From: Clostridia bacterium
Lineage (GTDB): Bacteria > Bacillota > Clostridia > TANB77 > CAG-508
Assembly (NCBI GenBank): GCA_900752335.1
Contig: CAADUZ010000007.1
Location: forward strand, 29,388-93,387
DNA length: 64,000 nt
Direction: 5' to 3'
A program made the position numbers and the translations under genes. The notes below the pieces were generated by a model. That model saw only the letters and a program-made list of their open reading frames with translations, ran no database searches and was not told the DNA's origin. Below are positions 5,922 through 7,115 of the stretch, in pieces. Within the stretch, counting starts at the first letter, position 1, and each line of letters opens with the position of its first letter.

Positions 5922-7115
5922 TTATTGTATCTCGTTTATATAAAGCTGGATGCGAAATGAATGGCTGGAGTAGGCACCGCTCGTAATGACGTAGTAACGA
6001 CAAGCTGCATAAACATAGTCATAGTCGCATTCACCACCTCTGCAAACACAAGGATAACTAACACCATTATGAATACCGCTAGAGTATTCTGTTGTCCATT
6101 CATAGCAATTACCTAGTAAATCCTGTACATTTGAATAATTATCTGCTTCATATTCTCCTGTTTTTGTTTTATTATTTGTACCTATATTTCCATAACTACT
6201 ATCTGTTGTTGTTGCCAATAAATAACCTTCTTCATTTGTTTGACATATAAAGTTTAATGCTGTGTCCCGTGCATAACTACTTATTAACTCACTTGTTACA
6301 AATTCATTTCCGTTATACATTGCCTCTGCTTGTTGTTTTGCCTCATCTCTTGTTACATATACATATGGATATTTATTTGCTTGCACTAATGGTGTAGTTA
6401 ATGGGTCTGTTTTTGCTGTTCTTTCTATTTCAGTTCCTGATTCATAGCGACCTATATAAAAGCCCTTATTTGTTGTGCTACTAGTTTTAAATGCATCTAT
6501 CTGGTCTTTTGCTACTGAATTAGTATTTCCTTCACCATAGTAATATTCATTTTCTGTTTCTGCGTTTGGACCAGCTATTGCATCATCTCCATTTACTAGT
6601 GTTGAACCACTTTCTGTAAAAGTTCTTCTACTTAATTCATTCGTTAACTTTCCCGTAGAACTTATTGTAGTTGATACATTATATTCTCCTACTGGTATCC
6701 ATACAAATTGGTTTCCATTATCGTCTTCTATTACTATTCCTTCTTCTACCTTTGTTCCACTATCTTCTGCTATATTAAATCCTCCTGGAACTGTTACTGA
6801 ATTATCTAAATCGTCTGTTATTGTTGTTGTATCTTCAAATGGTGTTCCATTATCTCTTGCCTCTTCTACTTCGCTTTTTTCTTCTGGCGTATTTGTTGTA
6901 CCTGTTCCCGCAAGCACACCATTTATGAACTCTTCTGCTCCTTTTAATTCGTCTTGTTCTTCTTTTTGTGCTTGCTCTGTTAACGTTTTTCCTTCTTGTG
7001 CCCTTTGAATTAAGCCACCTTCTCCAAACACTAATGTTATTGTTACTGTTGCTAGAATTATTAGTATAATAACTGTTATTACTAACGCAATTAAGGTTAT
7101 ACCCTTTTCTTTCAT
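5922..7115 (-). CDS. Pilin-like (prepilin-type leader) protein with C-terminal FGE/SUMF1-type (C-lectin fold) domain, copy 1
   Basis: 397 aa with a GGAGG RBS. Leader MKEKG|ITLIALVITVIILIIL. FGE-sulfatase-like blocks: FYIGRYE, VTRDEAKQQAE, LLGNCYEWTTEY, CRGG...FRIQL. Paralog at 58482..59633. Confidence 0.8.
   Translation of the reverse strand: MKEKGITLIALVITVIILIILATVTITLVFGEGGLIQRAQEGKTLTEQAQKEEQDELKGAEEFINGVLAGTGTTNTPEEKSEVEEARDNGTPFEDTTTITDDLDNSVTVPGGFNIAEDSGTKVEEGIVIEDDNGNQFVWIPVGEYNVSTTISSTGKLTNELSRRTFTESGSTLVNGDDAIAGPNAETENEYYYGEGNTNSVAKDQIDAFKTSSTTNKGFYIGRYESGTEIERTAKTDPLTTPLVQANKYPYVYVTRDEAKQQAEAMYNGNEFVTSELISSYARDTALNFICQTNEEGYLLATTTDSSYGNIGTNNKTKTGEYEADNYSNVQDLLGNCYEWTTEYSSGIHNGVSYPCVCRGGECDYDYVYAACRYYVITSGAYSSHSFRIQLYINEIQ

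Follow-up and report, generated by a model that had tools for sequence, protein, structure and literature searches.

The Mtd/Brt/Avd system of Bordetella phage BPP-1 is the paradigm of diversity-generating retroelements (DGRs), in which retrohoming needs the IMH, an element at the 3′ end of the variable region (VR) of the target gene. The BPP-1 element is phage-borne and serves a single adjacent target, and its IMH and hairpin are experimentally defined. In the DGR of Treponema denticola, TvpA and seven remote targets share one template repeat (TR) that acts in trans (PMC5758913). The DGRs of Bacteroides, with cassettes that contain Avd and Msl, diversify type V pilus adhesins (bioRxiv 10.1101/2024.11.15.621889). 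As for the sequence limits of such targets, certain differences outside TR adenines, and indels of 3n opposite runs of AAC, are admitted by Wu et al.; the largest number of non-A differences reported for an accepted target is 11.

The stretch of DNA analysed here (64 kb in full, hereafter the window) contains two pilin-like paralogs, copy 1 and copy 2, that we compare with these systems together with the DGR of the same species. Adenine-specific TR-to-VR transfer, an AAC-rich TR, a C-terminal VR and Avd are common to BPP-1 and to this species, in which the IMH-like end is placed by position alone. As in T. denticola, the system is chromosomal and non-phage, with scattered paralogous targets (PMC5758913), and as in TvpA the VR lies at the extreme C-terminus, the FGE/C-type-lectin fold being suggested here by weak Pfam matches alone. 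It differs from the Treponema system in its pilin-like N-terminus (a lipoprotein signal there), in the Msl gene of its cassette and in that copies 1 and 2, both remote, look frozen and differ from the template at more than its adenines. With the Bacteroides DGRs it shares a gut commensal host, a chromosomal location, Avd and MutS-like accessory genes and a target with a C-terminal VR that is, here putatively, a pilus-associated surface protein; however, the host belongs to a different phylum (Clostridia), the N-terminal module is type IV-like rather than type V, and the targets form a family of several paralogs, in which cassettes are exchanged and some VRs look fossil. Modular type IV pilins such as PilB of Streptococcus sanguinis (PMC8179133) have a comparable pilin-like N-terminal helix, onto which a C-terminal module with a functional or adhesive role is grafted, and no DGR is involved in PilB; our copies have an alanine instead of the canonical glutamate at +5, and no pilus assembly genes were seen in the window. 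Finally, the Neisseria pilE/pilS system offers an analogy only: homologous recombination between the 3′ cassettes of a pilin-like gene family produces mosaic alleles. Neither silent promoterless cassettes nor a G4 initiator were identified here, and the underlying diversity is, unlike that of pilE/pilS, made by reverse transcription.

Two pilin-like paralogs and their G+C-rich tails

The genes of the window on which the analysis bears are the following.
5922-7115, minus strand: copy 1, a pilin-like ORF of 397 aa.
58482-59633, minus strand: copy 2, a paralogous ORF of 383 aa.
56878-57618, minus strand: a prepilin (type IV leader) peptidase (PF01478, E=2.3e-17), two genes downstream of copy 2.

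Copies 1 and 2 are 76% identical overall and diverge completely over their last ~45 codons. From RGG to SFR nearly all residues differ while the lengths are equal, as the sequence-only reading had described. The homologs of copy 1 number 5813; an identical protein is found on at least nine contigs (ENA, NCBI and JGI) for copy 1 and on five for copy 2, including the same ENA scaffold and the JGI contig that bear copy 1.

At its N-terminus copy 1 has a hydrophobic segment (KG followed by ITLIALVIT), and its C-terminal domain resembles FGE-sulfatase/C-type lectin domains. The class III signal of type IV pilins is defined by G followed by (F/M/I)TL(I/V)E, with a glutamate at +5 and a hydrophobic helix, and goes together with a cognate prepilin peptidase. 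The glycine and the hydrophobic helix are present here (KG followed by ITLIALVITVIILIILA), with an alanine at +5; matches to pilin N-termini are weak only, and two homologs carry the JGI label ‘pseudopilin PulG’. The peptidase, whose arrangement with copy 2 is syntenic in two other loci (L086 and L302), is a candidate for processing these N-termini, and the two proteins would be surface adhesins processed by this nearby enzyme. The FGE/C-type-lectin fold is weakly assigned from sequence matches: PF03781 is matched by copy 1 below threshold (14.5 bits, E=0.028) and by copy 2 at 23.4 bits for a cut-off of 23.3 (Pfam), SUMF2 is a weak PDB match (E=0.31), and the pLDDT of an AlphaFold model from a 68-sequence alignment, 42.6, does not permit a search by fold. 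ToxI-like repeats gave no match in Rfam.

The tails stand out by their composition. In both copies GC3 goes from about 0.13 up to 0.5. Adenine, which makes up 0.45 of the rest of the gene, is reduced to 0.21 in the tail of copy 1 and 0.28 in that of copy 2. Taken as 147-nt segments, the two tails (GC 0.44-0.49 for a window mean of 0.30) are among the top 0.3% and the top 0.01% of the 64 kb by G+C. The local GC jump first noticed in copy 1 is thus real, and copy 2 has it as well.

The DGR of the species and its template

A current DGR target is expected to share its genome with a DGR-clade reverse transcriptase (RT; IGxxxSQ ... YxDD) and an accessory gene. Neither an RT, a TR nor the conserved DGR-RNA flank motif is present in the 64-kb window, where a gapless repeat search and an A-tolerant TR scan returned self-matches only; the same absence of RT and template had been noted from the sequence. 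Copy 2 can be ruled out as a TR for copy 1, and the reverse, as the differences between them are not limited to adenines and involve all bases. Viral contigs yielded two relatives only, 32% identical and both without an RT, and a degenerate ‘VR base or A’ (M/R/W) TR pattern searched in them matched poly-A and N runs only. Look-ups with P0241, the RT of the species, and with P0259 found no RT-bearing contig from the samples that contain the window (ENA ERZ28597031/SAMEA1906493, GCA_902474685.1 and JGI 3300056532).

A full cassette is found in a conspecific genome (ERZ28761995 contig_25, 1.475 Mb; locus L288), which is 96.3% identical to the window at the nucleotide level over 17 kb and 12 kb and has syntenic orthologs of both copies. 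It comprises, in order, a third paralog that is the cis target (P0027), Msl (MutS-like, MutS_I), bAvd (NF033474, E=1.4e-20), the RT and the TR, and lies about 175 kb from the copy 1 ortholog and 225 kb from the copy 2 ortholog. The window's own genome presumably carries it too. This agrees with the proposal, made from the window alone, of a DGR core that acts in trans from beyond the 64 kb.

L288 13421-13558: TR of 138 nt, with the in-frame reading EYSSNNNNPCVNRGGNYNNSNNYAANRNNNNTSNSNTNNSFRLQL, the ends GAGTACTCAAGCAACAACAACAAT...TTCCGCCTCCAGCTCTAA and the flank motifs TTAGGGATAAATC and GATTATATATTTTACGGAATATATACAG.

Three variants of this TR are known to us from the comparison, with 2-4 differences at third-codon positions only. 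An RT identical to that of L288 is indexed in 124 collection blocks. Set against the TR of its own cassette, a cis VR has 17-27 changes at A sites and one non-A change, and between strains that are 98.3-99.4% identical over 13 kb the chief difference is the cis VR, with just 0-2 mismatches in 2112 nt of the cassette. Since the cis VR changes are almost all at TR adenines and separate strains that are 98-99% identical, the element is active at the cis locus within the species. All 20 representatives of the cis-type clusters examined have distinct VRs (20/20), and the cis VR shows, in an AT-rich cassette, a composition jump like that of the window tails.

DGRs do target the wider pilin-like family, with intact cassettes and A-specific TR/VR pairs at L261 and L286 and decayed cassettes at L041, L070, L063 and L282. 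L041, where Avd and an RT adjoin a homolog, was considered as an intact DGR and rejected, as its RT is truncated and no TR was found within 21 kb. L295 was set aside as a guide to VR1: its RT is 86% identical, yet it has a different target subfamily and TR.

The window tails against the template

Homology to the actual TR sets the borders of the VR equivalents and of the elements around them.
5943-6089, minus strand: VR1 of copy 1 (EYSS...SFRIQL), 147 nt for 135 nt of TR, with a 12-nt insertion.
58503-58637, minus strand: VR2 of copy 2, 135 nt as in the TR; its first half fits and its second half is decayed.
5940-5960, minus strand: IMH-like 3′ end of VR1, TCATTTCGCATCCAGCTTTAT, with 3/21 mismatches to TCYTTCCGCCTCCAGCTTTAT.
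About 5940-6290, minus strand: hypervariable 3′ cassette of copy 1 at strain level, ~350 nt, of which ~200 nt lie upstream of the VR.

The segment originally picked out, 5922-6050, does correspond to the variable tail, but its borders shift: the VR equivalent starts 39 nt upstream of RGG and ends 21 nt before the stop codon. The TR aligns to VR1 and VR2 in frame and codon for codon over 135 nt. VR1 differs from it at 29/53 A sites and 14/82 non-A sites (OR 5.9, p=8.8e-6) and VR2 at 28/53 and 19/82 (OR 3.7, p=7.7e-4); against the best of the three TR variants, VR1 retains 13-14 non-A mismatches. In the AAY codons, VR1 is changed at 24/38 first and second positions and at 6/19 third positions (24/38 and 4-6/19 across both copies). 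A single VR1 residue (E) falls outside the NNY-reachable set, so that the initial remark on AAY-reachable residues in copy 1 holds with one exception among the AAY-templated positions. VR2 has E, Q, E and K at such positions; with these residues and its 19 non-A mismatches it is clearly decayed, and the suggestion that copy 2 could be a relative without diversification holds. Another lineage (P0058) has nearly the same VR as VR2, with ordinary substitutions.

For a current target, the differences should be confined to TR adenines, and the positive controls for this are the cis VRs (17-27 A-site, one non-A) and L086, an ortholog of copy 2 with 20 A-site and 6 non-A mismatches, which suggests from its sequence that a remote paralog can serve as a DGR target. 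In neither copy 1 nor copy 2 are they so confined; both have TR homology, an excess of A-site mismatches and an NNY footprint, as would a former target. L289 has no adenine bias towards the TR (OR 1.2). The template predicted for the segment exists, with mismatches enriched at its adenines and not restricted to them. The sequence-only reading had named a template match that is not adenine-specific as evidence against itself, and what we find speaks in part against present activity and not against DGR ancestry.

The cis target and L086 end in the same IMH-like sequence, TCYTTCCGCCTCCAGCTTTAT, from which VR2 (TCCTTCCGCGTCCAACTATAT) departs by 3/21 mismatches, as does VR1. An IMH role for this end is suggested only by where it lies, at the point where TR/VR homology stops on the 3′ side; no conserved hairpin was seen downstream of the VRs. 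If it has this role, the mismatches would block homing into VR1 and VR2.

Stasis, recombination and the origin of the tails

In strain L002, which has 252 mismatches over 17.1 kb (1.6% divergence), VR1 (169 nt) is unchanged at every position. Seven copy-1-type sequences have only three VRs among them. Variation among close strains by A-site changes, seen in the cis VR, is not seen in VR1. At the same locus, the cassette of copy 1 is 61-74% identical between the window and L084, with changes at all three codon positions and a 5-codon indel, while the flanks are 97-100% identical for kilobases on both sides; the window, L084 and L289 alleles are 74-77% identical to one another. The L084 and L289 alleles differ from VR1 at synonymous and non-A sites, also beyond the TR span. 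Conversely, identical tails occur on different bodies: the last ~140 aa are 100% identical in P0003/P0030 and in P0004/P0063, whose bodies are divergent. Different ~350-nt cassettes at one locus and identical tails on different bodies point to recombination. The pre-VR 3′ body of copy 2 in the window is 86-89% identical to the cis paralog, compared with 78% to its own ortholog. Among the loci compared, none proved to be the donor of any of the three cassettes seen at copy 1.

Copies 1 and 2 are paralogs of the cis variable protein, and probably remote targets that the DGR once used or still uses only rarely. The sequence-only reading had left copy 1 as a DGR target or a former one; TR homology and the enrichment of mismatches at TR adenines bear this out, and the former-target option is favoured because of the 13-14 non-A mismatches, the indel, the imperfect IMH-like end and the absence of change across 1.6%-diverged strains. 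The reading as a whole, in which the tails are DGR-derived and are now fixed alleles that differ between strains mainly by cassette recombination, is one that we hold with reasonable confidence. In the mechanism that we propose, the cassette would provide the cis target, Msl, bAvd, the RT and then the 138-nt TR rich in AAY codons. The RT would copy the TR RNA into cDNA with misincorporation opposite template adenines, and the cDNA would replace the homologous C-terminal VR of the target gene, recoding ~19 Asn codons on the putative ligand-binding face of an FGE/C-type-lectin-like domain carried by a pilin-like N-terminal anchor. The A-poor, NNY-codon and G+C-enriched make-up of 5943-6089 and 58503-58637 would be the footprint of past retrohoming, VR1 being now well preserved yet static and VR2 partly eroded through ordinary mutation. 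Strain differences at the remote loci would arise mainly from homologous recombination that swaps ~350-nt 3′ cassettes among alleles and paralogs, and ongoing adenine mutagenesis would not be their source at copies 1 and 2.

Copy 1 might instead still be an active remote target, into which the DGR of the species, or a second DGR with a longer TR, homes at low frequency, the identical VR1s representing one clone. We judge this unlikely, since the non-A mismatches of VR1 exceed the reported maximum of 11 even against the best TR variant, its IMH-like end has 3 mismatches, it is unaltered in the 1.6%-diverged strain, and the L084 and L289 alleles differ at synonymous and non-A sites and outside the TR span. 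The strong adenine bias, with one disallowed residue at AAY-templated positions, would nevertheless suit an active target; for chromosomal DGRs, remote targets at distances above 100 kb have been documented (PMC5758913), the remote paralog L086 of the same species fits the TR, and the criteria of Wu et al. leave room for some non-A differences and for 3n indels where the TR has AAC runs. Moreover, the loop of VR1 has 8 codons against 4 in the TR, and an 8-9-residue ‘xTxxGxxxPC’ loop in many family members hints at another TR lineage. VR1 may descend from such a different, unsampled lineage, in which case its ‘decay’ is overstated.

Less probable still is an origin of the tails without a DGR, as lectin-fold loops under diversifying selection and inter-paralog gene conversion that resemble the TR by common ancestry with the cis target. 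Mosaic tails and bounded 350-nt cassettes speak for it, L289 has no adenine bias (OR 1.2), and at non-A sites VR1 has diverged from the TR by 17%, level with the general divergence between paralogs (about 19%). As non-A divergence equals the paralog background, part of the adenine bias of VR1 could come from selection on the same loop codons, and not all of it from retrohoming. Yet selection alone does not explain the jump of GC3 to 0.5 with a halved A content in an AT-rich genome, the conservation of AAY third positions next to saturated first and second positions, or the near absence of K/E/Q/M/W at the templated positions of VR1; the TR is the only plausible source of the NNC/NNT codons in the tails. 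A transfer of G+C-rich DNA from a higher-GC organism or phage with no retroelement link, which the local GC of 0.44-0.49 against a mean of 0.30 could suggest, is effectively refuted by the alignment to the endogenous TR, to which, as to the species' cis VR, the segment is homologous in frame from end to end. The same composition jump of the cis VR in an equally AT-rich cassette also speaks against it, as do the viral contigs, which give two distant relatives only, both without an RT, and we give it hardly any weight.

Besides the DGR-derived tails that we favour, a two-tier system can be tentatively proposed, although the odds are rather against it: the DGR would seed cis and occasionally remote VRs, recombination would spread ~350-nt cassettes, and decayed IMH-like ends would ‘lock’ favourable variants in place as stable alleles. 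This scheme would extend over at least four dispersed pilin-like paralogs and exchange between strains. If true, it would combine a generator of diversity with the shuffling and freezing of cassettes in a family of type IV pilin-like adhesins of gut Clostridia with small genomes.

DGR paralogs were correctly flagged from sequence in a window with neither RT nor TR, and the template was later recovered from a conspecific genome. One species offers a series of VRs, from the active cis VR through L086, which is plausibly active, to VR1, now frozen, and the eroded VR2 and L289. The series gives an entry to how remote targets are recruited, lost and locked, and to how much IMH change ends homing. 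Beside the type V pilus adhesins of Bacteroides, DGR targets now include a pilin-like family, probably surface-exposed, of uncultured gut Clostridia.

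Two pilin-like paralogs and their tails

The window holds two paralogous pilin-like genes, copy 1 and copy 2, whose products are 76% identical.

5922-7115, minus strand: copy 1 (397 aa)
58482-59633, minus strand: copy 2 (383 aa)
56878-57618: prepilin peptidase (PF01478)

High identity runs as far as ...GNC(Y/W)EWTTEYSS; from RGG to SFR almost all residues then differ between the copies, with equal spacing. In both tails GC3 rises to ~0.5 from ~0.13 and A makes up 0.21 (copy 1) and 0.28 (copy 2) of the bases, down from 0.45; among 147-nt windows of the 64 kb, the two belong to the 0.3% and 0.01% richest in G+C. 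The tail divergence and compositional shift described by the sequence-only reading are thus borne out and affect both copies. The Pfam FGE-sulfatase match is marginal (copy 2, 23.4 bits for a cut-off of 23.3; copy 1, 14.5 bits), the predicted structure has a pLDDT of 42.6, too low to confirm the fold, and the N-terminus, KG|ITLIALVIT, is without the canonical Glu at +5. The two products may act as adhesins at the cell surface after processing by the prepilin peptidase.

Copy 1 is directly followed by a ToxN-family toxin gene (PF13958, E=7e-40; 5125-5649, minus strand) that has three 39-nt tandem repeats (5705-5821) ahead of it, as in a type III toxin–antitoxin system (ToxIN-like). Two conspecific strains, L084 and L289, have the same arrangement; an Rfam search with the 39-nt repeats gave no match. 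A REP-like palindromic intergenic repeat (TGGAACAAGGGGACACACATTTTGTT...GGGGACAGACAT) occurs at 8174-8235, 44328-44461 and 58187-58271; ARAGORN places a tRNA-Leu(caa) at 8166-8251, over one of these copies, perhaps misled by the palindrome. The window also encodes a YcaO cyclodehydratase and two surface-type proteins (19915-23728 and 42372-44213), one with SH3_3 and cadherin-like domains and the other with SH3_3 and a type I dockerin, all unrelated to the DGR-type tails.

The retroelement of the species

The window belongs to the same species as a near-complete contig, ERZ28761995 contig_25 (1,475,409 bp), judging by the syntenic orthologs of copy 1 (L289; TraX, gene, ToxN, IleRS) and copy 2 (L086; peptidase U32, gene, HAD phosphatase, prepilin peptidase) found there; identity with the window is 96.3% at each locus, across 17 kb for L289 and 12 kb for L086. 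The contig also encodes a third paralog, P0027 (410 aa; 73% identity with copy 1), at distances of ~175 kb from L289 and ~225 kb from L086. P0027 is followed by a MutS-like gene (Msl; 145 aa), the accessory gene bAvd (124 aa; NF033474, E=1.4e-20), a reverse transcriptase (RT; 335 aa) and, 62 nt downstream of the RT, a template repeat (TR; L288 13421-13558). Translated in frame, the TR reads EYSSNNNNPCVNRGGNYNNSNNYAANRNNNNTSNSNTNNSFRLQL up to a stop codon, an exact fit to the tail skeleton of 68 close relatives, RGG-x-Y-xx-S-xx-Y-AA-x-R-xxxx-TS-x-S-xxxx-SFRLQLY, with Asn (AAY) at each variable position; in the relatives, the x positions are mostly N, S, Y, D, G, T and similar. The identical RT protein occurs in 124 collection blocks, always in the locus RNase Y, target, Msl, Avd, RT, and the three TR variants seen differ only at 2-4 third-codon C/T positions.

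The motif TTAGGGATAAATC, immediately 5′ of the TR, is conserved in the DGR cassettes of this clade, and those with an intact TR (L261, L286, L288 and L295) also have a conserved 3′ segment (CTCTAATAT...GATTATATATTTTACGGAATATATACAG) in common; both presumably contribute to the structure of the DGR RNA (L288 13400-13620; L261 7040-7240; L286 10225-10400; L295 7100-7300; L282 11065-11090). Neither flank motif is present in the window, in which searches also returned no RT and no repeat of either tail, whether direct or A-tolerant. The earlier statement that the 64 kb hold no RT or template repeat therefore stands, and the complete cassette on contig_25 supports its corollary of a DGR core acting in trans from outside them. 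The window's own genome probably carries this cassette, which was seen at the species level.

Comparison of strains indicates that the DGR is active at its adjacent (cis) target. The cis variable regions (VRs) of L292 and L291 differ from their own TRs at 17 and 27 adenine sites, respectively, and each at one non-adenine site (in L292 at the 3′ boundary). In strains that are 98.3-99.4% identical over 13 kb the divergence is concentrated in the cis VR, with only 0-2 mismatches in 2112 nt of the cassette. Among the top 120 homologs, 20 of 20 proteins with cis-type tails (...LQLYVNPES) have distinct VRs.

Footprint, stasis and probable recombination of the remote tails

By sequence, both tails appear to be the VR-equivalents (VR1 and VR2) of remote paralogs of the chromosomal DGR target. 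Codon by codon, the TR can be aligned with 5943-6089 of copy 1, where an insertion makes the loop before PC 12 nt longer, and with 58503-58637 of copy 2, which is equal in length to the TR.

Table. Mismatches to the TR at adenine (A) and other (non-A) sites
Window copy 1 (VR1): A 29/53, non-A 14/82, odds ratio 5.9, p=8.8e-6
Window copy 2 (VR2): A 28/53, non-A 19/82, odds ratio 3.7, p=7.7e-4
L086, copy 2 ortholog: A 20/53, non-A 6/82, odds ratio 7.7
L084, copy 1 ortholog: A 24/53, non-A 20/82, odds ratio 2.6
L289, copy 1 ortholog: A 18/53, non-A 25/82, odds ratio 1.2 (not significant)

Of a TR match with mismatches only at adenines, the TR itself and the A-site bias were found, but 14 (copy 1) and 19 (copy 2) mismatches lie at non-A sites. 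Within AAY codons, copy 1 shows changes at 24/38 first and second positions and at 6/19 third positions, and a single templated residue (E) falls outside the NNY-reachable set; this set of residues and the A-site excess argue for a clear adenine-mutagenesis footprint in VR1. Copy 2, which the sequence-only reading suspected might be a non-diversified relative, is further decayed, with 19/82 non-A mismatches; its templated positions include E, Q, E and K.

Retrohoming requires an element at the 3′ end of the VR, the IMH. From its position, the 21-nt 3′ end common to the cis target and L086 (TCYTTCCGCCTCCAGCTTTAT) may act as the IMH, and each window copy has three mismatches to it. VR1 has not been freshly copied from any of the known TR variants, because it shows these 3′-end mismatches and 13-14 non-A mismatches across the variants, a level (17%) matching general paralog divergence (~19%); accepted targets have a maximum of 11 non-A differences (Wu et al., PMC5758913).

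The identical copy 1 protein is found on at least nine contigs (ENA, NCBI and JGI), and L002 (GCA_902474685.1), which differs from the window at 252 positions in 17.1 kb, has not one difference in the 169 nt of the VR1 stretch. For copy 2, five contigs encode the identical protein, and the more distant protein P0058 has a near-identical VR2 with ordinary substitutions. The IMH-like mismatches may be the cause of this stasis.

The L084 strain is 97.5-98.1% identical to the window overall, but 61-74% exactly across ~5940-6290, where the differences affect all codon positions and include synonymous changes in conserved codons and a 5-codon indel. The three copy 1 alleles (window, L084 and L289) are 74-77% mutually identical over ~370 nt, and divergent gene bodies occur with identical tails (P0003/P0030 and P0004/P0063). 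The pre-VR 3′ body of copy 2 (~260 nt; window 58650-58850) is 86-89% identical to the cis-target paralog (L291/L288), whereas identity with the syntenic ortholog L086 is only 78% when all 369 nt of the 3′ end are taken together; this greater closeness to the cis paralog upstream of the VR indicates probable inter-paralog gene conversion. Together, these observations point to whole 3′ cassettes having moved by homologous recombination or gene conversion rather than to stepwise A-site mutagenesis. No donor was found among the loci compared. The JGI contig Ga0252449_000066 (L003/L303, 54,404 bp) has 416 nt of upstream sequence before copy 2 at its start and 276 nt beyond copy 1 at its end, and several RT contigs (L298-L300) begin just after the cis target; these paralogs or VRs are thus places where assemblies tend to end.

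The family and its cassettes

The copy 1-type protein has 5813 database relatives, in a family that is multi-copy and often tandem in MAGs of uncultured gut Clostridia. Several distant homologs adjoin DGR parts (L041, L070, L063, L261, L286 and L079). The cassette order is target, MutS_I-like gene, bAvd, RT, TR. In the complete cassettes of L261 and L286 the TR directly follows the RT and differs from the C-terminal VR of the target almost only at TR adenines. Cassette decay is frequent beside family members.

Table. Decayed or interrupted cassettes
L041, 11228-12831: bAvd and truncated RT, without TR
L070, 11452-12247: Avd and 14-aa RT stub
L063, 11511-11663: RT fragment
L282, 11075-11150: TR cut off after ~75 nt
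L261, 3437-4696: IS transposase between target and cassette

A separate intact DGR adjoins a serine recombinase at L079 (9965-12998; VR 10809-10936, TR 11645-11772). The N-terminus of its target is pilin-like as in the family (72% identical over residues 2-65) and its C-terminal VR domain is unrelated (DUF1566-like, as judged by eye); the same N-terminal module is thus combined with different DGR-diversified heads.

The Msl accessory gene was already known (Wu et al., 2018, PMC5758913), also from Bacteroides DGRs (bioRxiv 10.1101/2024.11.15.621889). The latter are one of the closest analogues, carrying Avd and Msl and diversifying type V pilus adhesins (same preprint). So is the Treponema denticola DGR, the remote targets of which have the FGE fold (PMC5758913), whereas the FGE match is marginal here. 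A limited literature search found no publication on DGRs linked to prepilin-like or type IV pilin-like targets.

TR homology, adenine bias and the conspecific cassette all support the original proposal of a target or former target served by a core in trans; for this strain, a former, or at most rare, target is more likely. Of modest interest are the series of VRs in a single species, graded from active through frozen to eroded, and the way in which retrohoming and cassette recombination appear to interact.
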